Source of the DNA: a virus
Taxonomy: Duplodnaviria > Caudoviricetes
Direction: 5' to 3' (one strand)
IMG/VR virus record: IMGVR_UViG_3300036820_000468
Span: 1-52,508 of that record
DNA length: 52,508 nt
Shown: one piece after another, positions 2,535 to 27,434 of the stretch
Layout: each line of letters opens with the position of its first letter
Numbering within the stretch: position 1 is the first letter of the stretch
Translations under genes and position numbers: made by a program
The notes under the pieces: model-generated
Database searches by the model: none
What the model was told of the DNA's origin: nothing
What the model saw: only the letters and a program-made list of their open reading frames with translations

Positions 2535-3226
2535 TACAGTGCGCTTGGCGCCGTCTCCGTAGCCTTGACCGGCTTGTTCTTGGCTCCGGCGGCGATCGTC
2601 TCGGCGCGGCCGACGACAAGACCCTTGAGTTCGGCGAGTTCCCGGCGCATCGCTTCGACTTCCTTGTCCTTTTCGCGCAGCCGCGCGTCCATGCGCTTAC
2701 GGATCTCACCTTCGGTTTCGTGGTGCGCCCACGTGTCCTTGAGATCGTCGAAGTCGCCGATACCGTAGATCTCGTAGAGGCTGATCGGATCGGGATCTTT
2801 GCCATCCTCGCTCAAGATCGTGATGTCGATGTCGGGCGAACGGTGCGGCCCGATCGGATTCATGTCAGGATGGAAGCCCTTCTGACCGCGGGGATAGTCG
2901 TAACGCATCAGATAGCGCGCCGATTCGATCGCGATGTGATCGCGCAGAACTTCGAGTATCGCTTCGTCGGTACACTGCTCGTACTCCTCGAAGCGGTCGA
3001 ATGGACCGAACCACGCCCGTGCCTTTTCAACCGGCTGGACGACCGAGTCGCCTGGGCGCAGCACGATGATCGTGTTCTTGAAGCCGCGGCCCTTGCACCA
3101 GTTGAGTTCGAGTGGCCGCTGCGAGTCGTGAGCGAGATGGATCCGCGCCATCTTCTCGATGACGGTGATCTCGCGGGACTGCTTGAGCTGACGCTCCTTG
3201 TCAATCTTTGTGAGAATCGTTCCCAT
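2534..3226 (-). CDS. Hypothetical protein with C-terminal coiled coil (head module)
   Basis: 230 aa, translationally coupled at both ends. Confidence 0.8.
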   Translation of the reverse strand: MGTILTKIDKERQLKQSREITVIEKMARIHLAHDSQRPLELNWCKGRGFKNTIIVLRPGDSVVQPVEKARAWFGPFDRFEEYEQCTDEAILEVLRDHIAIESARYLMRYDYPRGQKGFHPDMNPIGPHRSPDIDITILSEDGKDPDPISLYEIYGIGDFDDLKDTWAHHETEGEIRKRMDARLREKDKEVEAMRRELAELKGLVVGRAETIAAGAKNKPVKATETAPSAL

Positions 3227-4245
3227 TAAAACTCTCCGTTGACCAAGATCGGGATTTTACCGGTGAACCCAGTTCCGCCCGTGAAGGTCGAGCCCGTCGC
3301 GACGAAGGTCGTGCCACCCGCGCCCGTCACGTTCGACGCCGTCGTGAGCGAGTTGGCGACCATGCCGCTGATGTGCGTGAAGAACCGGCCGGTTTCGCCC
3401 AGCGTGCCGTTGGCAGCCGTCGCTCCGAAGGTCACCAGGAACGGCGTGCTCAGAGCGTTGACCGTTACGGTGATCGCGCCAGCCGCGTTGGCCGCCGTGA
3501 AATATTGACTGAAGTTCGGCTGCAAGTTGAGGTACGCGACCATCGCCGCTGCGGCCGTGGTAGCGCTCGCCGCAGTCGTCGGGGTGAGCGCAAGGCTCCA
3601 CGTCGCCGTCTGCAACGTACCCGGAGCCGTGTCGAGGTACGGCGACTGGATGATGAGATTGAGCACGTCGCCCGCAGCCGGAGTAGCAACGGTGAAGACC
3701 TGCGCGGCCTGGGCGAGTGCCGCAGCCGTCAAGGACGAACCGATCCCCGACGCCGGCAAGTTCGCGACACCGACGAGTGCGCCCGACACAGCCGTCGCAA
3801 CGGCGACGCCTTGGCCGTAGCCCGCCGTGTTACGCGAACTGACGATCGGGAGTCCATCGACGATCGTTACCGCACCCGAGCCGGCCTGATCGACGTAGGC
3901 GTACGCAATGCCTTTGATCGTGGCGTTGACGAACTGCGTGCCACGGATGCTGGTCTGCGCGGACGACACGTACGTTGGCACGCCGCCGGCATTGATCGAT
4001 CCGCTGAAGCCCGGCCAGTCCGCTGCGACGACGCCTGCGATCTTGCCTTTGGTCGTGCCGGCCGGTAACGGCTGCACGGTCTGAAAATCCGGGTAAGTCT
4101 GATTGTCGATCGAGACAAGCGCGAGAATGATGCCCGGAGCGTAGTTCGCCGGTACGTTATACGGCCGGTATGCTTGGGCGCCTTGCCCACCGTAGTTCGG
4201 CTCGTTGTTGGTGGTCAGATCGCCGGTCGTAGTCCACTTCGGCAT
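3226..4245 (-). CDS. Putative capsid decoration / minor structural protein
   Basis: Ala/Thr/Gly-rich, downstream of MCP, strong TAAGGAG RBS. Confidence 0.65.
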   Translation of the reverse strand: MPKWTTTGDLTTNNEPNYGGQGAQAYRPYNVPANYAPGIILALVSIDNQTYPDFQTVQPLPAGTTKGKIAGVVAADWPGFSGSINAGGVPTYVSSAQTSIRGTQFVNATIKGIAYAYVDQAGSGAVTIVDGLPIVSSRNTAGYGQGVAVATAVSGALVGVANLPASGIGSSLTAAALAQAAQVFTVATPAAGDVLNLIIQSPYLDTAPGTLQTATWSLALTPTTAASATTAAAAMVAYLNLQPNFSQYFTAANAAGAITVTVNALSTPFLVTFGATAANGTLGETGRFFTHISGMVANSLTTASNVTGAGGTTFVATGSTFTGGTGFTGKIPILVNGEF

Positions 4246-4288
4246 GAGTTATCGACTCCTTACGTTACTGCTAAAAGGTTCGTGCGAA

Positions 4289-4474
4289 CTACCGGCGACC
4301 GTCGGGCTGCGACATATGAAGCGCGCCTTCGGGGGTCGGATAGCCCCGCTCGTAGCTCTTGGGTTCCATCGTCGACTTGGCAGCCGTGATGATTCCGCCC
4401 TCGAGTTCGACGCTTTCGCTCGGCACATTGCTGCCGTCGCCTGCACCCTTACCGCCGTGTTTGTTTCGTGCCAT
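4289..4474 (-). CDS. Small hypothetical protein
   Basis: TAAGGAG RBS, follows MCP. Confidence 0.65.
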   Translation of the reverse strand: MARNKHGGKGAGDGSNVPSESVELEGGIITAAKSTMEPKSYERGYPTPEGALHMSQPDGRR

Positions 4475-4515
4475 ATCGTTACGTTGACTCCTTAACCGTT
4501 TGAGATGTTGCTAAT

Positions 4516-5475
4516 CTATCCATTGGCTATGTTGCGATAGACCCCGCACGCTGCGGGTTTCCGAACTTCGAAGTTGCCCATCGCAAGAACCTGGCCCGCT
4601 TCGGTGTCCTGGTTGTAGGGGCGCTGGAAACCCTGGAACTCGAACTGCCGATCCTTGTGCAGGATGAGCCGTTCGTGATCGAGGTTGTGGAAGTTCATCG
4701 TGCCCGAGGGCTGACCGAAATCGTCGACGAGCGCGCAACCCTGAAATGCGATGTTATCGAATCCGAGGTTGCCGACCGAACTGTCGCGGAAAATCTCTTG
4801 GGGCGTGAGCAACGACCAGTACGATGCGTACCCGGTCTTAGTAGCCGAGATAAGCTGGACGCGCTCTTCGTCAGTTTTGCACTGCATGTACAGCGTCATC
4901 ATCGACGAAGTCGCAAGCGCAGTCGGCGTACCCGGGTCGAAGACCTGGGCCTGCCACCACGGGTTCGCGCTGCGATCGATGCCGTTGTAAACCGCGAAGC
5001 CTTGGGCGTTGTTGACTCCGGCTCCGAGGCCGTCCCAATCCTTGCCGCCGTTGCCATTGCCGTTGCCGTACACGAAGCTGGCCACCTTATCGAAGGCGGC
5101 CATGAACGCCGACTCGGTCTTGATCTTGACCAAGTTGAGCGTTGCGGTGCGGCCGGTGCAGCGGAGCTTGTCGGTCCCGTTGACGGTAGCCGATGCGTAC
5201 GCGGCGCACCACCGGATCTCGACGTTGGTGAACTCTTCCTGCGCGTCGGCATTGAGCAGGTCGGCGCCGAAGTACGACGAGGCCGTTTGATTCGGCTGCG
5301 CGAGAATCGGCTGGGCGATAATCGAACCGCCGTCGATACGCACGACGCGTCCAACGGCGTTGAGAACACCCATCACGGCCCGCGACATATACCGCTGGTC
5401 GATGACGTTTGGCCGGACGTACCGGTTTGCGACGGTGTTGATTTCGTTTGTGCTGACGTACGGAAGCCCGTTCAC
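4516..5475 (-). CDS. Major capsid protein
   Basis: 319 aa; motifs DGGSII, S-Y-G-D-L, YGNG-G--GK--DGL, YNGIDRS-NPWW, LGFDNIAF-G typical of HK97-fold podoviral MCPs; follows scaffold; GAGGA RBS. Confidence 0.88.
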   Translation of the reverse strand: MNGLPYVSTNEINTVANRYVRPNVIDQRYMSRAVMGVLNAVGRVVRIDGGSIIAQPILAQPNQTASSYFGADLLNADAQEEFTNVEIRWCAAYASATVNGTDKLRCTGRTATLNLVKIKTESAFMAAFDKVASFVYGNGNGNGGKDWDGLGAGVNNAQGFAVYNGIDRSANPWWQAQVFDPGTPTALATSSMMTLYMQCKTDEERVQLISATKTGYASYWSLLTPQEIFRDSSVGNLGFDNIAFQGCALVDDFGQPSGTMNFHNLDHERLILHKDRQFEFQGFQRPYNQDTEAGQVLAMGNFEVRKPAACGVYRNIANG

Positions 5476-7474: not shown

Positions 7475-8005
7475 TTACCTCACCATCCTAACAGACGGAT
7501 GAATGTTACGTCCTTGTTTTGCGTTGCAAGACCGGCACTGGCCGACGATGTTTAAGATCTCGTTTGTGCCACCACGGCAGAGGGGGACTAGATGGCCGAT
7601 TGTAAGCTTCGTCTCTACCGCACAATCGAAACATCGCCCGAACTGTCCGGCTTTGATTGCCTTCCAGTCTACTGCGTCGAGCTTGCCCGAAACCGTAGCC
7701 CGTCTTCGGTTTTGCTGCGTTACAACAAGGTCGGAGTTACGACGGCGCCAGGCTGACTGGTAGACTCGTTTACCTACGGCGCGGCGCTCGTTGTATCGCC
7801 GTTGGTATGCAAGGAAGCCCTCGCGGTTTTCCGCTTTCCACGCAGCGTGGGCAACGCGGGCTTCCTCACGGTGTGTCTCGCGATATCTTTTCAAATACGC
7901 TAAGTACTCGTCTCGTTTGTTATTACGGCGCACCTTACTACGAGTACGGGCCTTATCGCGATGTTCCAGGTAGTACGTTTGAGCGTACTGTTGTTTAGTC
8001 GTCAT
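7475..8005 (-). CDS. Free-standing HNH endonuclease
   Basis: CFDC...TIGHLVPLCRGGTN...NIVGQCRSCNAKQG; basic helical N-terminal repeats; ATGA overlap with portal stop. Confidence 0.9.
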   Translation of the reverse strand: MTTKQQYAQTYYLEHRDKARTRSKVRRNNKRDEYLAYLKRYRETHREEARVAHAAWKAENREGFLAYQRRYNERRAVGKRVYQSAWRRRNSDLVVTQQNRRRATVSGKLDAVDWKAIKAGQFGRCFDCAVETKLTIGHLVPLCRGGTNEILNIVGQCRSCNAKQGRNIHPSVRMVR

Positions 8006-10068
8006 CGCATTGCAGCGTTATCTCGGCGTGATGGTAGATTCGAAGGTGGCGGCATTCGTTTTCGATGCGCATCACGTGCGGAGTTTTTCGGCGTAGGGCC
8101 GGGCTTACCTGATTGCTTCGCCATTGCCTGTAGTTTAGCGTCTTGCTCTTCTTGCTTCAACATTCGTGGTAGCTCAGTTTTCCAACCCTCTAACTTGAAC
8201 TTCTTCATCCACCACGTTCTATCGATCAAATGCTTATCGACCAGCGTCATCCAACGATTCCACACACCCGAGGGGGACGTCGACAGCGAGCTGATCGGAA
8301 CGATTTTGAACTCGACCTGTCCACGCAGGTCCTCGTTTTTGTATCGGCGGAACGATACGGCGACTTCGTTTGCCGGACGCACGATCCCAGGGTCCTCACT
8401 CGAAACGCGCAATGGTTTGTTGCCCTGATCGAACTGCTGCAGCAACTCAATCGTGAGCCGTCCCAACCGCGTAAGCCCACTTTCAAAGTTACGGACCTTC
8501 TGGCGAATCGGCGCAGCGCCGCTCTCCTGCAGTTGATCGACGGCAGCATAGCTCGCGTTGTCGGCCTTCATCGCACCGGTCACCGCAGGGTTCACACCCG
8601 ACACCTCGCCCATACCCGCCGAGATCACCTCAAAGAGCTTGAAGAACTCGGGGGGAATCGGCGGCTTGTCGAGCGGTTGAACGTCGGCAACGTTTTCCAT
8701 CGGAATGACGTAGCCGGGTTTGTTCTTGATCGTCGCGAGATTGACGCCGCCTTTTTTGACCTTCCAGCTCGGGTTGCCGGTCTTCTCGAGTATTTCGAAA
8801 ACCTGCGAAGCGATTTTGTTTACCGCGATCGCCATCGACTGCAACTGCAGCGGCTCACCCTGGCCGTAAATCGAACCAATGTCTTGGTCTTTCCACATCG
8901 CAAACGGGAAGCCGGTCGTCTGATACGGGTTGGGAATATCGCGCAGCAGTACCTGGCCGCCAGCGATCGTAACGAGGCGGCCGTTGGGAAACTTATACCG
9001 CCACGCCGACTCCATCACCGGCTTCATTTTCGGCGCGTACTTCGGCACTGTAATCATCGTGCCGTCGATTTCGTTTGGCACTTGCCGCGTACCGACGACT
9101 TCCATCCGAACTTCGCCGTTCTCGATTACCGGCTCGAATACGCCTTGGTCGTTCTCGACCTTCTGGCGCTGGTACTCAACACGCGTTTGGTCCTTCAACC
9201 AATACTCGGCGACTTCGACGGTTTCGTGATCGTCGTCTTGGTAGTTGGGATGCGACATCGGCGACTGCGGGGAGACGATGTTGCCGTTGATTTGCATCGC
9301 TGAAAGAATCCGCCCGCCGGTCGCCGAGCCTTCATGTATGAAGTCGCGGTTACGAATCTGATCGGAGTTGTCTTCACGCTGCACACCCCGCAGCCGAGAC
9401 ACGATCTCGGCCTCGTTCGGGAAATTCTCCCGAATCCAGCTCATCGTCATGTCTTCTACATGGATGATGTACTCGGCGTCCTCGACGCACGTCGCCGTTT
9501 TGTTTGTATAAATCCGGTACGGCGGAATCACCGTCGCGATCAGTTTGCCCCGGCCATTGTTAGCAAACGGGTCGTACACGCGCTTGATAAACGAGTAACC
9601 CCAAATCAATCCGTAAAGCGTCCAGACGGCAATCGCCGACTGCAAATCGTTGTCGTCCCACTCGCGATCGACCAGCTTGCGCAGAAGCTCGGCGGTGTCT
9701 TCGGTGCCCTCGACTTCGGGCTCGACGGCATAGCGGGGCTTCGTGTCATTCATGATCGCTTGCATGAACAGAATGAAAGCCCGGATTTTGTTGATGGTGA
9801 TCGAAGCGCGCCAGTTCGGACGGCGCTCGTTCCACATCTCCCCCGAGAACAGCGCCCAAGCTCGGTCAAACGTTTCGAACGGTTTACGCTCGCGCTGCGC
9901 TCGATTAAAGAGCTGGGAGCAGTACCGTAAGATCTCGAGTTCTTGGCGTTCCTCGAGCGTCAGTTCGACTTCGACGGGTGCAGGTTTGCGCTGACGCGCC
10001 TCGTCGTACTTACGCGAGTCGTATTCGTCTTTGCGCTGGTGCCCGGGAAACTGCGCGGTTAGCGCCAC
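8002..10068 (-). CDS. Portal protein (P22-like)
   Basis: 688 aa; W...TINKIR...P.Y.VEP...D..TAELL motif; EVSGV; between TerL and scaffold. Confidence 0.88.
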   Translation of the reverse strand: MALTAQFPGHQRKDEYDSRKYDEARQRKPAPVEVELTLEERQELEILRYCSQLFNRAQRERKPFETFDRAWALFSGEMWNERRPNWRASITINKIRAFILFMQAIMNDTKPRYAVEPEVEGTEDTAELLRKLVDREWDDNDLQSAIAVWTLYGLIWGYSFIKRVYDPFANNGRGKLIATVIPPYRIYTNKTATCVEDAEYIIHVEDMTMSWIRENFPNEAEIVSRLRGVQREDNSDQIRNRDFIHEGSATGGRILSAMQINGNIVSPQSPMSHPNYQDDDHETVEVAEYWLKDQTRVEYQRQKVENDQGVFEPVIENGEVRMEVVGTRQVPNEIDGTMITVPKYAPKMKPVMESAWRYKFPNGRLVTIAGGQVLLRDIPNPYQTTGFPFAMWKDQDIGSIYGQGEPLQLQSMAIAVNKIASQVFEILEKTGNPSWKVKKGGVNLATIKNKPGYVIPMENVADVQPLDKPPIPPEFFKLFEVISAGMGEVSGVNPAVTGAMKADNASYAAVDQLQESGAAPIRQKVRNFESGLTRLGRLTIELLQQFDQGNKPLRVSSEDPGIVRPANEVAVSFRRYKNEDLRGQVEFKIVPISSLSTSPSGVWNRWMTLVDKHLIDRTWWMKKFKLEGWKTELPRMLKQEEQDAKLQAMAKQSGKPGPTPKNSARDAHRKRMPPPSNLPSRRDNAAMR

Positions 10069-11337: not shown

Positions 11338-14300
11338 CTACCAGCTTGCATTTGCTTCCTCGTCATCGTCATCGATTCCGTACTCGCCCAGATCGTCAAC
11401 CGCAACAGCGTCGAGTTCATCGAACGAACCGAGGTTGGGATCGTATCCGTAATCGTCGTCGGGGTCGATCTGCCGGGCTTCGAGATCGGAGCTGCCTGGA
11501 ATGATCCCCATCTCCAAGCGCATCACCGCGTGCATAATCTGGAAGCTCGAAACGAAATCGTCGTGACGACCGGCGGCACCGCCGTAGCTGCGTTCGTCGC
11601 CGAAGGGGTCGTGCTGCCGATAGCTGCTCATCTCGGTGACGACCTCTTCGGAGGGGACGGCGATCATATTGTTCTCGATCGTCCGGCACATCCACGCGAC
11701 CGCGGTCGGCTTGGTCTTCGCGTTACTTTCCCAGCCGATGTGTTTAGAGAACGGCATATCCGCGACGCCGGGCATCCGGTAGTGGTAGATCTGATAGAGC
11801 CGCTTCTGATCGATGTACGTGCATGTTGCCGTTCCTGGGCCCGTCCACTCCGGTACGAGTTTGGGCGAGACGACCTTATCCCCAACGCGCTGCTGACAGA
11901 GCCATCCAATCGCTGCGCAGACTTCACCAAAAGCAATCGGGTTGATGCGCCCACGCCAGGTCATGATTAGTTCGTCGCGCTCGAGTTCGTTGAGCACGCC
12001 GACGCAGATGGTCGAAAAGTCGCCGTCCTTGGTCAACGGGTTCCCTGCACCGACATCGGCGCCGATGATAATGCGATCGCCTCTGCGCGGCCACCGCCAG
12101 ACGCGCAGGTTGTCAAGGGTCTTGTCGTAGACATCGTGAGAGCCAAAGCCCTGCGTCTCGGCTTCACCGGGCGAAAGCGGACGCGGCCGGCGGATCGTAT
12201 CGTAGATCGAAGCGTACTTATTGGCCTGATCATTTTCGCCCCAATAAATATCGCCTTCCCACTCCGGCTCGCGGACGTTCTCCATCAGCGTCTTGATCGC
12301 ACCCATCGAAAAAACATTGGTACCCGAGAGCAAGAACGCCGTCGCGAGATCCGAGTTATGAACGAGGATGCCACCAGCGTCGAAAACATTGGTTTGAGCG
12401 ATATGTAGGTCATAGACTCTTCGAGTCCCAATCGGATCGACAGAAATAACCTGGTCGACATACCCGGCAATACGCTCTGGCCGTCCACGGTTAGATGCAG
12501 GTTTCTCCCTGGCTCGCTTTCTCGCAGAAACGAATCCTATCTCGTAGCAAAATATTTTTGCGTCGTACGATAACAAGGCAAGCTCAAAGCCTGCGTATTG
12601 CGTCCCCTTTTTTATCACACGCCGTCGGGAGCTACGAATATGGAGTGATAGCAGCAAGTGCTGAACGTCCCGGGAAAACCTCTCTTTATTGGTAAACAGT
12701 TTAACGCTGTTCTTTGTAGCGGAAACCCAACCGTCTGCCTCAAATAATGCGCGCAGGAATTCGCGGACGACTGAACCAGGGCTCCTACGAATACACTCGG
12801 GAACGCAAACCTTTCTGCGAGCCAAATGATCTCGCATCTCTCCACAACCTAAACGCAACAAAAACTCTTTTACGGCCCTACTGCTCGAGCGAAGCCTACG
12901 GCAGCCTTTATTCGGGCCAGTTAACGATTCCTCAAAACTTATTCTAAAAAGTTTTTCCCCCAAACGCTTAATGTCGCTCGACACTTCTTCATCCCGAGCA
13001 TCACAAGCGAAGTCCAAAGCATTTCCGTATAGGCTTCCGTCACCCATGAAGTACCCAAGGAAACGCGCAAGCTCCGTCGTTATCTCAACCGAGGATTCTA
13101 CTGTAGGTAATACATTCCATCGGGCAACAAACGGTTTCTTCGCCAGCATCGGGGCCTGTAGAAGAACTTGTTCCCCCAAAGCATCCCCCGCAAATACGAA
13201 CTCGCCGTCTGCTTTTTTGATGGGGTGCGTCAGGGTACACTCGATGGTATAGCCCGTAGCAGTAGAAACACGGACGCACTCCTGGTCGCCGTTATCGGCC
13301 CAGCCTAAAACTTTCCCACTTGAAGTTTCCGCTCCGCGTTCTATCTCCGATATTGGACGAATCCCTGAATCTGTACCAACCAACGTGTCACCTACCAGAC
13401 ACGGGTATTCTTGGTCGAAGAGGTTCGGATCACGGTTGAACGGCGGAACCGCCAATCTCGCACGGCGCCATTTGAGCTGCTCGAGCGTCACGTGGGGGAA
13501 GCGCTTCATAATATCGCGCTCTTCGGATTTGATCGTTCGTTCGAATCGCGCACGCTGCGACATATCTTCAAACGGAATCTGAAACGACTTAATCATTTCG
13601 TGCCACGGTATAAAGACCAGCCGCGTCTCTCCGTACTGCGTGCGCTTACGTTCCTTAGCATCCATGCACTGCTCGTAGAAGAACTCACCGCGACCGGTCT
13701 GACCATTGGGCGTCGATTCCATATACTGCGAGGATTGCTTATCATCCGATAGCGTCGGGCTCAGAGCGCGAAAAAGATCGTCGCCATTATCGTAATAGCC
13801 GACTTCGGTAGCGTGCAGGTTCTGAAAACCGTGGCCGAGGTACGCATCGATAGACTTGGCCGATGCGCTAAAGATGCGAGAGTTCAGTGGCGGGGCGAAC
13901 TCGAGTCGGTCAGTCGGCGGGTTATTGTTATATTTCGCGAGCAACTCAGGACGAACATCGAAGACCTGCGCCTCGCCCCCAACGTTAAACGTGACGCTCT
14001 TGGGTAGATAGTTCCAGAACGTCGTACACATTCCAAGCACGTTCTCCGACGGCTTGGCTTGATTGCCGACGATTAAAGAGTCGGTGTTCGGAGTCGTCGT
14101 CGTATCGTCGAAGATCAGCGACTCGGCACCGGTCGATAGCCCCGCTCGCCGCGATTTGCAGATGATAATGCGCACCGGCATCCGGTGGTCGCGAAACCAC
14201 TTATGCGTATCGTACAAACGGATCTGCGCTTCGTTGTAGCGCAGGCGTATGATCTTTCGAGTCTGCGCTAACTTAATCCAGTACAGGTTCTCGATCCGAA

Positions 14301-22117: not shown

Positions 22118-22246
22118 AAGTAAGTTTCTGGATTTGTAAGTGTATGCGACCCTACACACACAGTATAGGATACTCCCGGACCCTCTCTTAGTCAATTCGT
22201 GTGTGTGTATAGGGTCGCACTTACTTTTTATCTCAGAAACTTACTT
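22118..22246. repeat. ~130-bp AT-rich nested inverted repeat, candidate replication origin
   Basis: AAGTAAGTTTCTG/CAGAAACTTACTT outer arms; TGCGACCCTA/TAGGGTCGCA and CACACAC/GTGTGTG inner arms. Confidence 0.6.
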
Positions 22247-23975
22247 ACCGTACAATCTGGAGCTTTTTGCTCGTTTTGCCCGGCTTTTCTTCTGTAGGCG
22301 GATCGGGGAGAGCTATCTCCCACAGCAGACTACCCTTGCGCCGCTCAATATCGAAGAAGCCGTCTTCGACCTCACGCCCTTTCATAGTCAAACGAGCCCG
22401 TGCTTTGCGTTCGTCCTTAGCCATCATAATCGTCGTATCGACGCACGCCTGTCCTCCTAAGGTCCCCGCACCAGCATCGAAAGGATCGGTAGATCCCCAT
22501 TTTCCCTTACCCTTGGAAGCGTGATCAAGCATTAAAATGGGCACTTTATAACGGCGCGAAAGGTCCCAAATCGGTTGAAAAACACGGTACTCAGCCCGGA
22601 AGGCGCTCCCTTTTGTGCTCACCTGGCCAAAGAATGCAGCGACCGTATCGATGCAGATAAGCCGCGGGCGCTTGCTTTGTTTGACCCACTGTTCGATCTC
22701 TTCAAGGCCGCCTTGACCCGAGATCGGCCACTCGATTGCCATGCGCAGCGCGTCAGGGACATCACCCGCGCCCCAGAGCGCTCGGACGCGCTCCTGCAGC
22801 CGACGCGGGGAATCCTCGAGCGCCAGGTACAGCACGTCGCCCTGCTGCGAATCAAAACTCTGCGGATGGTCGGCGTAGGCGTACATCGAAATCGAGGACG
22901 GGAAGAGTGGCTTGCCCGCAGCGACGGCCAACGCGCACTGCAACGTGAGAAACGACTTCCCGGTCTTTGGCTTACCAAACAACTGCGTGGTGCCGTCGAC
23001 GATGAAGCCTCTGATCGCGTATCCAAGCGTTCCAAGATCTGCACGCATGAGTTCGGGGGCTGAAAAGGTCGTGATTGGCCCCGGCTCTTGTGTCGGCGAA
23101 CTCGTCGAGCTAGCGTACCCGCTAGAACGCCCTGCTTGTTGATTTTTTGTAATCGAGAGCCAAATCTTCTGCACCTGGGCCATATCCATCGGCGGGGTAT
23201 TACACGCGTTCCAGTTGACGAACTGACGCCAGCACTCGTTCCACTCCGTTTCGTCCGGGTGAGCAAAGAGCAAGCGACCGAGATACTTGGTCGCCATATC
23301 GTCGCGTTCACCCTCAACAACGCCCCCGAGGGCATCCTCCCAGGGCCGCGATGCCGGCGACGCAAGTTCCCCGACGGTCGTACCCCCGCCTCGCACTGCG
23401 GCGATCCGCTCGAGCACGAAGTCGGGCAGCGGGGCGATGCCCTCTTCGGGCTCCCGCTCCCAGACATAGCTCACGCCGTCGGGATGCGGCGAGGGCGGCG
23501 CGAGCACGTAGTTACCCTCACCGCGCAGCTCGACGAGGTCCCCGAAGAGCTTGACGCCGGGCAGCGCAGCGGGTTTGCCGTCAGTTCCAAGCGGCGGCCG
23601 AAAATAAAAATGACGGCCCTTTTTTGCCCGGGCCGTCGCTGTTGGAATGTTTCGGAGCGCTTCAATGAAGGCGTCGGCTTGCGGTGAACTCAGTTTCCCG
23701 ATACGATCGTCGTCGATAACGACCGCGTTGGAGATGCGCCCACAGACGATGGCTATACCACCGGTTGGGGCTTGAGCCGCCCACTGCTCCAATATATCGT
23801 CTCCGACACGTTGTTCTTGAAGGGCTTTCCAGGAATCGAGCGCCGGTCGTTTCCAATCTTTTCGAGGAGCGGTCGTGCCGGCGAGCACGGGCATCGTAGA
23901 AAAACCAAGCGAAGCATAGCGTAAATAATGCGCTGCGATACGATTCACGAACGACTCGTCATAGGTTGGTTGCAC
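22245..23975 (-). CDS. Bifunctional primase-polymerase + PriCT + AAA_25 (RecA-like) helicase
   Basis: AVVIDDD, GRHFYF, RGEGNYVLAPPSPHPDG; EGERDD; Walker A GKPKTGKS, YLALED, Walker B LICIDT; likely GTG start at 23975. Confidence 0.9.
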   Translation of the reverse strand: MQPTYDESFVNRIAAHYLRYASLGFSTMPVLAGTTAPRKDWKRPALDSWKALQEQRVGDDILEQWAAQAPTGGIAIVCGRISNAVVIDDDRIGKLSSPQADAFIEALRNIPTATARAKKGRHFYFRPPLGTDGKPAALPGVKLFGDLVELRGEGNYVLAPPSPHPDGVSYVWEREPEEGIAPLPDFVLERIAAVRGGGTTVGELASPASRPWEDALGGVVEGERDDMATKYLGRLLFAHPDETEWNECWRQFVNWNACNTPPMDMAQVQKIWLSITKNQQAGRSSGYASSTSSPTQEPGPITTFSAPELMRADLGTLGYAIRGFIVDGTTQLFGKPKTGKSFLTLQCALAVAAGKPLFPSSISMYAYADHPQSFDSQQGDVLYLALEDSPRRLQERVRALWGAGDVPDALRMAIEWPISGQGGLEEIEQWVKQSKRPRLICIDTVAAFFGQVSTKGSAFRAEYRVFQPIWDLSRRYKVPILMLDHASKGKGKWGSTDPFDAGAGTLGGQACVDTTIMMAKDERKARARLTMKGREVEDGFFDIERRKGSLLWEIALPDPPTEEKPGKTSKKLQIVR

Positions 23976-24018
23976 ACTTTCTTGAGGGCGCGGGCGCGTT
24001 TGGGGTGTTCGGGGCACA

Positions 24019-24067
24019 AGTATAAGTCGGCAGGGTCTTGACCGCAAGACCGGCGTAACGCTACAAT
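24019..24067. promoter_or_regulatory. Back-to-back promoters with a palindromic operator over both -35 boxes
   Basis: Plus: TTGACC-18-TACAAT; minus: TTGCGG-17-TATACT; GGTCTTG-ACCG-CAAGACC at 24034-24051. Confidence 0.7.
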
Positions 24068-24225: not shown

Positions 24226-24347
24226 TGGGAACAAACGCACCGATCGTACGTGAATACGAGGTACCCGAACCGAAAGACAATCCGCTGCCGCAGTCGTTGC
24301 CCGCAATGCCGAGCAAGCCGCCGGTGGAAGATCCGGTACCCGCATGA
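24225..24347 (+). CDS. 40-aa Pro-rich peptide
   Basis: TAATG and ATGA coupling on both sides. Confidence 0.55.
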   Translation: MGTNAPIVREYEVPEPKDNPLPQSLPAMPSKPPVEDPVPA

Positions 24348-25114
24348 GTCACGAACCTTTAAGCGACGCGTACAAAAAAGCGTACGACGCAGTAATGAAA
24401 GATTTGCGTGCCTTCGAGTTCGCGCCGATGCCGTTTCCGTTTTACGAGGGTATCCCACCGAAGCCGACCGGTTTTAGCGTCGCCGAACTGCTTGGGCTAT
24501 ACGTTCCAAAGGACGACGATCCGTACGTTTTAGATAAAGACACACAGCTTTTTCTTCCGCGCGATTACGATCGTTACGCTTATTACCCTTCCAGTTCTAG
24601 TTTCCTGAATGCGCTAATGCCGCCGCCGCCTTCGCCGTGCTGCTATCCGCGCTCGTGGCCGAACTATATGCCGTGGTCGTGGCTTATTGACGACGAGCCG
24701 AAAACGGTAGTACCGCCGAAACCGGAAAAGGTAAAGCAAGATACGTGCGTCGTCGGGTACCGCAACTGGCTTTTGCTATTCGTCGGCGAGCAGCAAGTGC
24801 TACTGCGATCAACGGCCGTTCGTCACTACGTTTGGCCGCCGGGCGAAGCCGCAAAAGGTGAGTCGCCAACCGGTAACGGGCTGTACGCGTATACAACTTT
24901 GAAGCGGGCACGGGCCAATGCGTACGGTACCGACGTACTTGGTCATGTCAAACTTTGGGGCACGGTTTACGAACATTCCGACGGTGTCTTTCGTGGCGGG
25001 CGCGGGTATCCCACAAAACTTTTAGTTCACAAAGACGTAAAGAACGCGAAGAACGTCGCGCAGATGCTCGCACGGGCTTACGGATGCGACGTCGTTGTCG
25101 GCTACGACGACTGA
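24344..25114 (+). CDS. Hypothetical phage protein
   Basis: C-terminal GYR.W...L.S...WP...GLYA...G.V.LWG.V.EH..G.R pattern. Confidence 0.75.
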   Translation: MSHEPLSDAYKKAYDAVMKDLRAFEFAPMPFPFYEGIPPKPTGFSVAELLGLYVPKDDDPYVLDKDTQLFLPRDYDRYAYYPSSSSFLNALMPPPPSPCCYPRSWPNYMPWSWLIDDEPKTVVPPKPEKVKQDTCVVGYRNWLLLFVGEQQVLLRSTAVRHYVWPPGEAAKGESPTGNGLYAYTTLKRARANAYGTDVLGHVKLWGTVYEHSDGVFRGGRGYPTKLLVHKDVKNAKNVAQMLARAYGCDVVVGYDD

Positions 25115-27434
25115 GTATTGGGCGCACCAGCTCGCTGACGCCCAACAGTATGCAGCAGTTCCCGGACACTTTCGCTTCTGGGATCCACGAACCGGGAAAA
25201 CGCGCGGCACTGTATTAGAGATCGCGATCTGGATTCAGCAGTTCGGAATCAAAAAGATTCTGATCGTTGCGCCTGTTGACGGCTGCAGCGTTTGGCTCAA
25301 AGAGGACGAGCTTGGACGCTTTGACGCTAGCAAGGTTTGCATCGTCGATCTTTCGACCGACGATCCGATTCGCGAACGCAGCCTCGTTTTGGGGTCGCTC
25401 AAGCAGGTGCGACCAACGATCGTCGTCGTCAACCGCGACGTCATTTTCCGCAAGCGCATCGTTACGAAGACCAAAGAAGTTCCCGACGTCTTCGCCGGCA
25501 CGACGGAGATCAGCAGCACGAAGCATTACGCCGGGCTGCTTGACGCATTGCTCAAATGGGGGCCCGAAGCGGTCGTGCTTGACGAGTGTGTGCCTGCTGG
25601 GACGCTAGTATCAACGCCTTATGGCGACATCCCCATTGAAGCATTAACCGTAGGAGCCGTGGTTTGGGGTTTTGACGAAGCGGCGGGAACACGTATCCCT
25701 GCTATTGTGACACAGACGTTTGCGCAACGATCGACAGCGCCTCTCGTTAAAATAAATGATGTTACGATGACCGCAAATCATCCAGTCTGGATCGGTACTG
25801 AATATATTGCAGCGGGTCGCTTGCAGGATAATGCTTTAGTGTACTACACTACTACAAATGATCCTAGCCAAAAAATGCGCCCGGTGCGCGCGTCGGTTCG
25901 AGTACATCAAGACAACCCGAACACGCAAGTTCTGCTCCAATCGTTGCAGCAATGCTGCAACATTAGAAGGCAAGAACTTTCGGGGTTACATCACTTCGAA
26001 ACGCAACCCGTTTCGAACCCGAGAAGTACAGATAAAGGCTTTAGCTGCGAGCAAAGCTCACGGCTACGCGCATCTAACGGGGGGGAATGGCACGGGGATA
26101 ACTCACCCTCAAGCCTTGCTGCTGGAGCAACTGACCGACTGGGTTCCATCGTTTTGGATTCGTTTAGAAGGGACACTTTACGAGATCGATATAGCGCATC
26201 CAGCGCTACAGATCGCAATAGAGGTAGATGGACAGAGTCACAACGCCAAAACGGTTCGTGCTCGCGACGCTCGCAAGGACAAGCGCTTACGGATGGCGGG
26301 ATGGGTGGTAGTCCGGATTTGGAACAAAGAGATTTTGCGGGACCTTCCCAAAGTTCTCAAGCGATTACAGTCTATAACATTGAAACGTCAACGGGTAACT
26401 ACTTCGCGGGAGGTTTAGCCGTACATAACTGCCACGATTATCGCCGGATCTCCAGCAAACGCGGACAGGCTGCCGAAGCGCTGGCCAAGCGGGCGCGTTT
26501 CCGACGCGGGCTCTCCGGTACGCCCGATCCGCGCGATTACCTGGACTTTTACGGGCAGTATAAGATCGTCGCACCACACGTCTTTGGAACCCGTAAATCC
26601 GATTTCCAAGACCGATACTGCAAAATGTCGTATCATTTTCCGAACAAGGTAGATGGCTACCGGAACGTGGAGGAGCTTCGTGCCAAACTTTTTTCCGTGG
26701 CGTCACGCGTCCGACAAGAAGACTGCTTCGATATGCCCGAAATCCTACCCGACATCTTCGTTGACGTTCCACTCTCACGACTTGCTCGGGAGCTTTATTC
26801 CGAGCTTACCGCTAATTACGTTGCTGAGTTCCTCGGGATCGAACTCGACGCGACCCACCAGCTCTCGCGGCTGACCATCCTGCACCAGCTCGCCCAGGGC
26901 TTCGTACGCGACGAGCAAGGTAACCCCGAATGGGTCTTTGACGGTAAGATCAAAGCCGCGCACGATTACATCGAAGAGATGCTGCGCGCCGATAAGCGTG
27001 TGGTCGTCTACCATCACTATACGCCCGAAGGCGAACGGCTCTTTAACGAGTGCGTCAAAGAGTACGGCGCAAAGCGGGTCGGGCGTTTGAGCGGCGGCGT
27101 CACGCGGCTCGACCGCTCGCCACACCCGTTTGCCGACCGTCCGCAGATGCGCGTCTTCGTTGCCCAAGAGAGCACCGCGCAGTTGGCCATCAGTCTGCGC
27201 GAAGCCGATCACGTGCTCTGGTACTCCTGGGGCCCGGCCGCCGATGTGAACTATCAGGCCCGCCAGCGAATCTTCGATGAGCGCTCCAAGAAGCCGCACG
27301 GGCTCTCATATACGTTCTTACGCAGCGTCAACACAGCGGACGCGTTCATGACCAACACGATCGCGCGCAAGCGCACGGCCTCACAAATGCTACTGGACTT
27401 TGGCTTTGCAAAAGCCGCTAAGGGAGAAGCGTAA
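25095..27434 (+). CDS. SNF2-like SF2 helicase with intein
   Basis: DPRTGKT, ILIVAP, VLDE|CH split by intein, LSGTP, ISL..A, QARQRI. Confidence 0.9.
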   Translation: MSATTTEYWAHQLADAQQYAAVPGHFRFWDPRTGKTRGTVLEIAIWIQQFGIKKILIVAPVDGCSVWLKEDELGRFDASKVCIVDLSTDDPIRERSLVLGSLKQVRPTIVVVNRDVIFRKRIVTKTKEVPDVFAGTTEISSTKHYAGLLDALLKWGPEAVVLDECVPAGTLVSTPYGDIPIEALTVGAVVWGFDEAAGTRIPAIVTQTFAQRSTAPLVKINDVTMTANHPVWIGTEYIAAGRLQDNALVYYTTTNDPSQKMRPVRASVRVHQDNPNTQVLLQSLQQCCNIRRQELSGLHHFETQPVSNPRSTDKGFSCEQSSRLRASNGGEWHGDNSPSSLAAGATDRLGSIVLDSFRRDTLRDRYSASSATDRNRGRWTESQRQNGSCSRRSQGQALTDGGMGGSPDLEQRDFAGPSQSSQAITVYNIETSTGNYFAGGLAVHNCHDYRRISSKRGQAAEALAKRARFRRGLSGTPDPRDYLDFYGQYKIVAPHVFGTRKSDFQDRYCKMSYHFPNKVDGYRNVEELRAKLFSVASRVRQEDCFDMPEILPDIFVDVPLSRLARELYSELTANYVAEFLGIELDATHQLSRLTILHQLAQGFVRDEQGNPEWVFDGKIKAAHDYIEEMLRADKRVVVYHHYTPEGERLFNECVKEYGAKRVGRLSGGVTRLDRSPHPFADRPQMRVFVAQESTAQLAISLREADHVLWYSWGPAADVNYQARQRIFDERSKKPHGLSYTFLRSVNTADAFMTNTIARKRTASQMLLDFGFAKAAKGEA
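25821..25850 (+). promoter_or_regulatory. Intein-internal promoter for the nested endonuclease, leaderless
   Basis: TTGCAG-18-TACACT-7-ATG(25858). Confidence 0.5.
25858..26418 (+). CDS. Vsr/DUF559-type endonuclease nested in the +1 frame of the intein
   Basis: CARC...FCSNRC zinc finger; YEIDIA...IAIEVDGQSH...DARKDKRL...GW.VVRIWN. Confidence 0.85.
   Translation: MILAKKCARCARRFEYIKTTRTRKFCSNRCSNAATLEGKNFRGYITSKRNPFRTREVQIKALAASKAHGYAHLTGGNGTGITHPQALLLEQLTDWVPSFWIRLEGTLYEIDIAHPALQIAIEVDGQSHNAKTVRARDARKDKRLRMAGWVVVRIWNKEILRDLPKVLKRLQSITLKRQRVTTSREV

Follow-up and report, generated by a model that had tools for sequence, protein, structure and literature searches.

The stretch of DNA analysed here, referred to as the window, is a complete IMG/VR virus record of 52.5 kb (IMGVR_UViG_3300036820_000468; 52,508 nucleotides), which was derived from a metagenome. 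Positions 25095 to 27434 (+) of the window contain an open reading frame (ORF) of 779 amino acids, which is free of stop codons from end to end and encodes a helicase of superfamily 2 (SF2) related to SNF2 proteins. The helicase is interrupted by an intein, and a large part of the intein sequence is read a second time, in the +1 frame of the same strand, as a gene for a protein with a zinc ribbon and a DUF559/Vsr-like nuclease domain. It is very probable that the region is a mobile intein composed of two overlapping genes, one for the splicing intein and one for a separate homing endonuclease (HEN) in the +1 frame. The features of the locus are compiled in Table 1.

Table 1. Features of the helicase locus of the window. 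pLDDT, predicted local distance difference test; dN/dS, ratio of nonsynonymous to synonymous substitution rates.
Feature	Position	Strand	Evidence
N-extein of the SNF2-related SF2 helicase, ending in motif II with ...VVLDE	25095..25586	+	ORF; alignment with six intein-less homologues (D163 and E164 invariant); homologues with PF00176; phrog_62 DNA helicase
Class-1 intein, 281 amino acids, helicase frame: Cys1, block B T-A-N-H, blocks F/G VYNIETSTGNYFAGGLAVHN, then +1 Cys	25587..26429	+	Sequence; exact insertion relative to intein-less alleles; Hint fold
N-terminal splicing (Hint) lobe, intein residues 1-105	25587..25901	+	AlphaFold pLDDT 82-97 (blocks 1-100), beta-strands E7-E106
Host-frame filler, intein residues ~106-257, Ser/Arg/Gln/Gly-rich, predicted to be disordered	25902..26357	+	pLDDT 35-56 (residues ~110-255); host-frame dN/dS of relatives; freedom from stops compared with expectation
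C-terminal splicing blocks F and G, intein residues 258-281	26358..26429	+	pLDDT 93-98, strands E260-280; V279 and H280 nearly invariant, N281 invariant (87 inteins)
C-extein of the helicase, starting with CHDYRRISSKR	26430..27434	+	ORF; alignment of homologues
Nested gene for a 186-amino-acid zinc-ribbon and DUF559/Vsr-like (EDxHD-type) putative HEN, +1 frame	25858..26418	+	ORF, Pfam, alignment, PDB profile, AlphaFold/Foldseek
Zinc ribbon of the nuclease (C7, C10 ... C26, C30)	25876..25947	+	Alignment of 96 sequences; weak YacG/eL24-type zinc-ribbon matches
Catalytic core of the nuclease, residues ~96-171 (Y108, D111, E122-x-D124-G-x-x-H128, D137, K140, GW148-149, R153, N156)	26143..26370	+	Pfam stretch 108-171, conserved columns, 3hrl/3r3p
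AT-rich stretch of low structure around the nested ATG, without a Shine-Dalgarno motif	25828..25887	+	Folding energy -6.8 kcal/mol compared with -14.3 +/- 4.3 in 60-nucleotide windows across the helicase gene; 2.8% of windows as weak; GC 35%
Promoter-like hexamers TTGCAG (25821-26) and TACACT (25845-50), 18 nucleotides apart, 7 nucleotides before the ATG	25821..25850	+	Weak match, no evidence of a promoter

The intein starts with Cys1 (codon 165, TGT at 25587-89; CVPAGTLV...) and ends with His-Asn (codons 444-445, CAT AAC at 26424-29), which is followed by TGC CAC with the +1 Cys at 26430-32. Motif II of the helicase reads VVLDE/281 amino acids/CHDY, with the insertion exactly at DE/CH and the sequence VHN/C at 26421-26432 (slashes mark junctions, or alternatives where they stand in parentheses). 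Block B reads T-A-N-H at residues 62-65, and H65 is conserved in at least 90% of 87 aligned inteins; C1 is invariant among them, partly by construction since the rows were chosen for the DEC junction. An N-terminal Cys, a TxxH motif, His-Asn followed by Cys, a Hint fold and in-frame insertion at a conserved site identify the element as a class-1 intein. A Pfam scan of the host-frame intein yielded a sub-threshold match to Hint_2 over the first 46 residues and no nuclease domain. An AlphaFold model, which was based on the alignment of the 87 homologous inteins, has pLDDT values of 82-98 at residues 1-105 and 258-281 and of 35-56 at residues ~110-255. Comparison of the model with the PDB using Foldseek returned 36 matches with E <= 0.001 (best 1.8e-6), the top ones being a bacterial intein-like (BIL) domain and the NpuDnaB and Ssp DnaB mini-inteins. 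The host-frame product predicted by AlphaFold is thus a mini-intein whose loop is disordered, and the filler that makes up this loop results from reading the DNA of the nuclease gene with an offset of one base. A split intein was rejected on account of the continuous host frame, and a group I or group II intron on account of the open host frame and the Hint fold.

The insertion can be delimited by comparison with intein-less alleles. A search with the C-extein identified 16 proteins, all of which have a length of 464-505 amino acids compared with 779 amino acids for the helicase of the window. The 15 closest are 50-78% identical, all of them lack an intein and 14 contain a SNF2 domain. Six aligned intein-less homologues are contiguous across E164/C446 (...LDE/(C/V/S)H(D/E)Y...) without a gap, and the 281 residues are exactly the extra segment. 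The nearest relatives of the window in the nuclease and the Hint part have exteins that are only 24-31% identical, while the closest exteins carry no intein. This mismatch between the kinship of intein and extein would fit horizontal acquisition or repeated loss of the intein.

The nested ORF extends from an ATG at 25858 to a TAG at 26416-18, which is located inside block G of the intein. In a Pfam scan, its product matched MTES_1575 (PF18741; 1.5e-10, 41.5 bits with a cut-off of 38.2) and DUF559 (PF04480; 2.5e-10, 40.6 bits with a cut-off of 20.6), and a YacG-like zinc ribbon was found below threshold at the N-terminus (0.0072). All NCBIfam matches were far under their cut-offs, including weak ones to ProA and Hhe nuclease domains, and PHROGs contained no family for the product. 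The vsr model TIGR00632 scored 18.2 bits with a cut-off of 97.85, and an identity as Vsr orthologue was rejected for this reason. The nuclease was aligned with nested homologues, giving 96 sequences with the window first, in which the invariant M1 is due to construction, as the sequences were cut at start codons, and was not used. C7, C10, G76, G78, D111, D124, G125, H128, D137, W149 and N156 are invariant in this alignment, and C26, C30, N50, P51, G75, N77, E122, K140, R153 and others are conserved in at least 90% of the sequences. The nuclease of the window retains all invariant and nearly invariant residues, including the four zinc-ribbon cysteines C7, C10, C26 and C30, G75-G78, D111, E122, D124, G125, H128, D137, K140, W149, R153 and N156. 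The E-x-D-G-x-x-H block aligns with that of 3hrl and 3r3p, and D111, E122, D124, H128, D137 and K140 are presumably the catalytic residues. A profile of the nuclease matched 3hrl, a DUF559 structure, with 1.3e-13 and 3r3p, the structure of I-Bth0305I, with 0.0036 among the PDB sequences. The AlphaFold model of the nuclease has a mean pLDDT of 91.3; Foldseek placed 3hrl (TM-score 0.74) and 3r3p (0.72, both target-normalised) on top and Escherichia coli Vsr (1vsr) at rank 11 with 0.44, with E-values of only ~2e-3 and none <= 0.001. In many nested nucleases of other loci (L003, L045, L027, L076, L108 and others), two or three tandem CxxC...CxxxC zinc ribbons are present while the catalytic core is constant.

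Both frames are open over the whole overlap. Between 25857 and 26418, the host frame contains no stop codon and the +1 frame only its own terminator, compared with 16 stops in the third frame and 5-9 in the three antisense frames. Synonymous re-encoding of the nuclease with the codon usage of the window (20,000 trials) introduced a mean of 6.0 stops into the host frame and left it open in 0.145% of cases, and in none of 20,000 mononucleotide shuffles were both frames open.

The same arrangement is found in many other loci. A nucleotide search with the helicase gene against 50,697 phage records gave no match. A tblastn search of the same records with the +1 product identified 28 records, in each of which the match lies under a coding sequence (CDS) annotated as helicase, P-loop NTPase or 'coil containing protein'. 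In all three GenBank phages that were inspected (Pseudomonas phage MR14, Corynebacterium phage phi673 and Vibrio phage K391), a helicase CDS continues across the match, which is in the +1 frame relative to it; the helicases read ...DEC(F)PAGT...VHN/CHH, and no nested gene is annotated. From pattern scans seeded with four nucleases, the best 80 relatives were taken for each collection, out of 130 in IMG/VR and 220 in GTDB genomes, and these 160 loci, the three GenBank phages and the window make up 164 classified loci. A nuclease was classified as nested if the spanning ORF extends at least 100 amino acids upstream and at least 60 amino acids downstream of it. Accordingly, 126 of the 164 loci have the nuclease inside a longer open ORF, always in its +1 frame; it is never found in the +2 frame or in frame, and 38 loci are 'free'. 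Nested nucleases account for all 80 IMG/VR loci and for 42 of the 80 genome loci (122 of 160 when the best 80 of each collection are taken together). The 38 free loci all derive from the genome collection, many of them from rhizobial records, and are mostly weak matches (<85 bits) to ordinary chromosomal DUF559 proteins, in which they are confined to the catalytic domain. By record title, the nested genome loci are spread over many lineages, among them Acidobacteriota, Chloroflexota, Planctomycetota, Patescibacteria, Elusimicrobia, Verrucomicrobiota, Bacteroides, Clostridia, Bacilli, Actinomycetes, Myxococcota, Campylobacterota and one Woesearchaeota bin.

The 126 nested loci correspond to 111 distinct nuclease ORFs. 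The N-terminal junction reads DE/C in at least 90 of them, a lower bound because the search patterns were crude and mis-picked this junction in some loci including the window; the C-terminal junction reads (V/A)(H/S)N followed by C or S in 103 and CH follows in 73. Relative to the intein (85 loci), the median start of the nuclease is at residue 87, and its end falls short of the intein end by a median of 6 residues. Most of the relatives' inteins are ~300-320 amino acids long, compared with 281 in the window. A Pfam scan of ten sampled host proteins identified seven helicases with SNF2, ResIII/DEAD or Helicase_C domains, one large terminase with Terminase_3 (L019) and two proteins with Hint/intein domains alone (L095 and L033). 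A profile search of 1.84 billion representatives clustered at 50% identity revealed 1,064 proteins with E <= 1e-30 and 5,112 with E <= 1e-10; the best 150 of these have a length of 158-496 amino acids and match over nearly their full length, in a result that covers the proteins and not their genomic context. A word-indexed search yielded 579 proteins with E <= 1e-10, many of them on contigs of ~1 kb, and a few of these are named 'very-short-patch-repair endonuclease' or 'endonuclease domain-containing protein'. Two individual arrangements differ in their host gene or number of inteins. In L019 (2235-4313) and L020 (both +), the intein with the nested +1 nuclease is located in a gene for the large terminase (TerL; Terminase_3/Terminase_3C) with the junction ...VHN/CEE, a switch of the host gene from helicase to TerL. 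In L039 (1260-4895, +), a single helicase contains two inteins, a canonical one with an in-frame LAGLIDADG domain (Hom_end_hint, Hom_end) on the N-terminal side, followed by a two-frame intein with a +1 nuclease.

A metagenome-derived record could in principle contain two compensating indels, introduced during sequencing or assembly, that moved a conventional in-frame nuclease domain out of frame. Logan contigs of two soil-metagenome runs cover positions 25300-26700 without a substitution or an indel, one of them at a depth of 71.6; taken alone this gives weak support, since both runs may be the source of the window itself. The same +1 phase with an open host frame is, however, present in the 126 nested loci, which are independent of each other and include isolate phages of three host genera, and the avoidance of host-frame stops would not exist in a frame that is never read. 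An artefact is thus effectively refuted, and its probability is negligible.

The two-frame organisation is also reflected in the way the DNA evolves. Selection was analysed on a codon alignment of 111 ORFs using 16 phylogenetically independent pairs with a nucleotide divergence of 5-36%, in which each locus was used once. Differences at the nuclease codon positions 1, 2 and 3 amount to 620, 544 and 1102, respectively (chi-square p = 2e-53). The dN/dS ratio according to Nei and Gojobori is 0.09-0.38 for the nuclease frame and 0.64-1.80 for the host frame of the same bases, where it exceeds 1 in 11 of the 16 pairs. In all 16 pairs, the ratio of the nuclease frame is lower than that of the host frame, and the amino-acid identity is higher in the nuclease frame. 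Synonymous resampling of 101 nested loci led to an expectation of ~11 host-frame stops per locus, while none is present; as these loci were preselected for an open host frame, the informative figure is the 126 of 164 loci that fall into the nested class. Frame-specific dN/dS and stop avoidance strongly support, at the level of the family and judged from sequence comparison, that the DNA in the middle of the intein is constrained as a +1 nuclease gene, and that the host frame is constrained only against stop codons. A plain mini-intein with a chance ORF was rejected based on the dN/dS result and the conservation of the ORF. Furthermore, the nuclease distances of 80 loci are correlated with those of the C-extein (rho 0.56) and of Hint-N (rho 0.31), with Mantel p = 0.001 in both cases.

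The initial annotation, which was made from the letters of the window alone, had described a helicase intein with the pattern Cys...HN/C in the DECH motif at 25587-26429 that lacks an in-frame nuclease, a +1 ORF at 25858-26418 for a 186-residue zinc finger and Vsr/DUF559-type nuclease, and two frames that stay open for about 560 nucleotides. All of this is borne out by the domain, fold and stop-codon analyses. Its reading of the element as a two-frame selfish unit with a filler and a separate nuclease is strongly supported by the phase found in 126 loci, by the frame-specific selection, by the two predicted folds and by the exact DE/CH junction in intein-less alleles.

How the nuclease is produced can be approached through the region ahead of the nested gene. 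Of 102 loci in which the zinc ribbon can be recognised, 101 have a start codon ahead of it, and the proximal start is ATG in 70, TTG in 16 and GTG in 15 of them. The median distance from the upstream in-frame stop to the first zinc-binding Cys is 16.5 codons, and in 56 of the 102 loci this distance does not exceed 20 codons. In the window, this stop is a TAG at 25837-39, six codons upstream of the nested ATG, and the ATG itself is surrounded by DNA of unusually little predicted structure (Table 1), in line with a separate initiation. Shine-Dalgarno motifs are located 3-11 nucleotides before 27 of the 101 proximal starts, compared with 8.8% of 12,883 start-like control triplets from the same host ORFs (binomial p = 1.2e-7). 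Among the 27 loci with such a motif, 15 have codons for Gly-Asp or Gly-Glu in the host frame, located in the ten residues ahead of the start (e.g., ...LKKGDFLY). The motif AAGGAG/AGGAGA is found just upstream of the nested start in L057, L060, L103, L121, L004, L068 and others, where the host frame reads Gly-Asp. In such loci, the same stretch of DNA may serve both as codons of the Hint lobe and as a ribosome-binding site.

Alternatively, a programmed +1 ribosomal frameshift in the helicase mRNA could generate a fusion of N-extein, Hint-N and nuclease, and the nuclease would then have no start of its own. This would account for the lack of a Shine-Dalgarno motif at the ATG of the window and for the +1 frame being open well upstream of the zinc ribbon in many loci, with the stop more than 20 codons away in 46 of 102. 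It does not agree with the remaining 56 loci, in which the stop is at most 20 codons from the first zinc-binding Cys, nor with the TAG that closes the +1 frame of the window six codons before the ATG, and no conserved slippery site was noticed in passing, without a dedicated search. Because of the start codons ahead of the ribbon, the nearby upstream stops and the enrichment of Shine-Dalgarno motifs, the sequences favour internal initiation as the more likely origin of a separately made nuclease, and a frameshift fusion is very improbable.

Taken together, the following mechanism is proposed. The whole precursor would be translated in the helicase frame, in which the lobes formed by residues 1-105 and 258-281 are joined by a disordered loop of ~150 residues. 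The intein would excise itself, and the SNF2-type helicase would be left intact, with an uninterrupted motif II (DECH). The loop would have no function of its own; its DNA is the same as that of the 186-codon +1 gene. The zinc-ribbon DNA-binding module and the Vsr/DUF559 (EDxHD-type) nuclease would be synthesised as a protein of its own, for which ribosomes most likely initiate internally on the helicase mRNA, at the nested ATG. The nuclease would then cut intein-less helicase alleles near the DE/CH codons in co-infecting phages, and repair of the cut allele would copy the intein together with the nuclease into it. In the +1 frame, the amino-acid sequence would be under selection, and in the host frame nothing but the absence of stop codons. 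Splicing activity, the activity and target of the nuclease, homing and the mode of expression are inferred by us; homing is suggested by the sporadic presence of the intein among close helicase homologues, by the unrelated exteins and by nuclease distances that track extein distances.

Several observations weigh against this proposal, most of them with respect to the window itself. The strand ahead of block F, which reads RVDSVEV in most family members, is not recognisable in the SNF2 subfamily of the window, and AlphaFold is unconfident at this strand of the window intein; because of these two points, the splicing efficiency of the window copy may be limited. The ATG of the window lacks a Shine-Dalgarno motif. 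A promoter of its own, which the initial annotation had assigned to the nested gene, could not be upheld: the hexamers are present as described, but they match the consensus at 3/6 and 4/6 positions (7/12), which is a chance-level match and not among the sites with at least 9/12 in a promoter scan, and the scan itself yielded three sites in 4 kb compared with 1.7 +/- 1.4 expected by chance. No RNA runs are listed that hold this stretch of the window. The nearest nuclease is only 41% identical to that of the window, and the selection result therefore describes its relatives rather than its own lineage. Homing of the window element would follow from family resemblance and the sporadic distribution of the intein.

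With these points in mind, the nested gene of the window could be a recently inactivated relic, in which case the intein would persist because it must splice and homing would have ceased. The lack of a close relative for a lineage-specific selection test, the ATG without a Shine-Dalgarno motif and the intein length, which is shorter than in most relatives, would be in line with this idea. However, the ORF is intact and retains every invariant and nearly invariant residue of the 96-sequence alignment, the nuclease model reaches a pLDDT of 91, and a relic in a frame other than that of the host would be expected to gain stops quickly, as illustrated by the 16 stops of the third frame; we consider a relic quite improbable. 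It is likewise conceivable that the nuclease is functional in phage exclusion, replication or repair instead of homing and uses the intein as a safe harbour, since DUF559-type domains also occur in anti-phage proteins, weak NCBIfam matches point to ProA and Hhe nuclease domains, and a free-standing relative in L106 is located beside and not inside a helicase gene. The nuclease is, however, tied to inteins at the same motif II site by the junctions of the 111 ORFs, it accompanies the intein in other host genes (TerL in L019, and UvrD), and it diverges in step with the extein, which would be the case for an enzyme that has the extein gene as its target. A single nuclease could also serve both marker exclusion and homing. 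A role apart from homing is thus unlikely, and a homing nuclease within a splicing intein remains the preferred explanation.

Apart from the nested form, the nuclease occurs in two other states. In L106, an Oscillospiraceae bin, a homologue of 213 amino acids (2902-3543, +) is free-standing, directly upstream of and slightly overlapping with an intein-less helicase (3518-4831, +) with the motif DESH; this arrangement is typical of free-standing HENs beside their target gene. A further free copy is present in a Polaromonas chromosome (L132, 2944-3621, +) among transposase genes and insertion sequence elements. A short ORF in the former host frame of L132 still reads ...VEGVEVLERG... and looks like the shadow of a lost intein strand. 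The in-frame state is represented by six UvrD-type superfamily 1 helicases (P0137-P0142, 787-983 amino acids), which were found in a search among longer proteins. All three UvrD proteins scanned with Pfam contain DUF559 in frame, in two of them (P0137 and P0140) inside the match to Intein_splicing, and P0137 reads VAVDE/CLPY...LVHN/CQD. The in-frame matches cover 45-60% of the window nuclease, and the P0137 intein, the one sequence inspected, shows no CxxC motif of a zinc ribbon. In 107 loci, the nuclease motif LGWTVLRF is encoded by the same bases as the Hint strand RVDSVEV. This overlap is not present in the SNF2 subfamily of the window (the window, L004, L005 and L084-86), where only blocks F and G are kept, and it is not claimed for the window.

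Inteins are described in textbooks as single-polypeptide elements, and the acquisition of their endonucleases is a long-standing question, for which a 'splicing first' model and Dassa's fractured-gene model have been proposed. Tentatively, and with slightly less than an even chance of being right, all observations can be read jointly as the largest and oldest two-frame intein family seen so far, with a living series of intermediates. A free-standing zinc-ribbon/Vsr-like endonuclease that targets helicase genes, a state kept in L106, may have been captured once by a helicase mini-intein. The +1 phase may then have been frozen, because parts of both genes are doubly constrained, with LGWTVLRF on the bases of RVDSVEV and the Shine-Dalgarno motif in the Gly-Asp codons of the Hint lobe. 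The unit may have spread through phages of more than 20 bacterial lineages and may have jumped between the Walker-B sites of SNF2, DEAD/ResIII, UvrD and TerL genes, and in UvrD it may have slipped into frame, giving rise to a conventional bifunctional intein. If true, the family would constitute the series of intermediates postulated for the acquisition of endonucleases by inteins. Because free-standing, nested and in-frame states all occur in one nuclease family, the direction of evolution can be tested by phylogeny.

The two-frame concept is not new, and the general architecture has already been published. Gosselin, Arsenault and Gogarten (bioRxiv 10.1101/2025.01.02.630785) described antisense LAGLIDADG, antisense VSR-like and same-strand frame-3 endonuclease VII-like HENs in inteins of DNA polymerase, minor capsid protein, TerL and ThyX of actinophages, and predicted that non-canonical inteins are more common than thought. 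The same preprint describes in-frame Vsr-like intein endonucleases, the state represented here by P0137-P0142, as unreported outside split inteins. Phillips et al. (bioRxiv 10.64898/2026.09.14.751524) reported out-of-frame ('+2ORF') LAGLIDADG HENs in cyanobacterial dnaX inteins with a two-frame selection analysis, and note that broadly distributed examples are few. Both preprints cite Gorbalenya 1998 for the non-canonical architecture. The elements of both studies resemble the one described here in that the splicing domain is in the host frame, the middle is structureless and the HEN is encoded by an overlapping ORF; the dnaX analysis also revealed purifying selection on the HEN frame and a raised dN/dS in the host frame, and invasion of a mini-intein by a free-standing HEN is the origin proposed for such elements. 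In contrast, the present family contains a same-strand +1 HEN composed of a zinc ribbon and a DUF559/Vsr-like domain, is inserted in motif II of SF2 helicases and is found in phages and prophages of many bacterial phyla rather than of one host group.

Other known systems share individual features. The fractured genes of Dassa et al. 2009 (PMC2677866) also contain a Vsr-like HEN gene between N- and C-terminal splicing parts on the same strand, mainly in phages and in genes of DNA metabolism including a helicase gene. They consist of split inteins that flank a free-standing Vsr-like or GIY-YIG HEN, whose 3' end overlaps the downstream part by 6-69 bp, and they involve two ORFs and trans-splicing, whereas an open host frame, an overlap of ~560 nucleotides and a contiguous cis-splicing intein are found here. 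A host gene broken into two ORFs, the mark of a fractured gene, is not seen in the window, where the host ORF is uninterrupted, as it is in 126 of the 164 loci. I-Bth0305I of the EDxHD family (Taylor et al. 2011, PMC3239194; 3r3p) is similar in its catalytic fold (TM-score 0.72, target-normalised; root mean square deviation 2.8 A; profile E 0.0036) and is likewise part of a mobile element in a phage gene of DNA metabolism. However, it belongs to a group I intron in recA and has another N-terminal DNA-binding region, while the nested family carries one to three CxxC...CxxxC ribbons, resides in an intein and is closer to DUF559 in sequence (3hrl, 1.3e-13). The ShiLan-type HNH insertions in phage methylase genes (Arsenault et al. 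2025, PMC11855218) have in common an out-of-frame nuclease ORF, an open host frame, a predicted loop-out and the lack of an annotation, but they have no splicing domain and the insertion stays in the protein, whereas a complete intein would remove it here. Canonical bifunctional inteins such as PI-SceI (1vde) and the in-frame UvrD DUF559 inteins are also inserted after the Asp-Glu of Walker-B/motif II, have Cys1...His-Asn/Cys and carry the HEN between blocks B and F; however, their nuclease is part of the intein polypeptide, while in the nested family it would be a separate polypeptide from another frame.

The initial annotation had left open whether such an architecture is published. It is, in its general form; a same-strand +1 DUF559/Vsr-like HEN in inteins of SF2 helicases was not found in the literature searched, although the supplements of the preprints may contain a helicase case. 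As far as the searches reach, this family, its fixed +1 phase, its breadth and the coexistence of free, nested and in-frame states are new. The expectation that standard annotation would miss the nested gene is correct for the three GenBank phage records and for PHROGs; metagenome gene callers, on the other hand, have called hundreds of such ORFs.

The preprints of 2025-26, which come from the Gogarten laboratory, call two-frame inteins rare, while the helicase family shows that one such design is common, with 122 of 160 loci nested among the best 80 per collection. The design is stable over deep divergence, and more than 1,000 nuclease clusters (50% identity) are found at E <= 1e-30. Annotation pipelines label the genes 'helicase' and overlook the nuclease gene, and surveys of inteins will misclassify the family as mini-inteins or decaying inteins. 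Disordered loops of ~150 residues that are tolerated in a working intein would be of interest for intein engineering. Culturable members are available with Corynebacterium phage phi673, Vibrio lentus phages and Pseudomonas phage MR14, and experiments are possible with these phages.

The window contains further genes of note. An ORF of 959 amino acids at 11338-14217 (-), which is next to the portal gene (8002-10068, -), gave a single Pfam match, to LAGLIDADG_3 in frame at residues 482-554; it probably corresponds to the large terminase, for which the initial annotation mentioned a canonical in-frame intein. The helicase gene is flanked by an ORF of 256 amino acids at 24344-25114 (+) and by one of 600 amino acids at 22245-24047 (-), the latter of which resembles a replication protein of the primase/AAA type by sequence.

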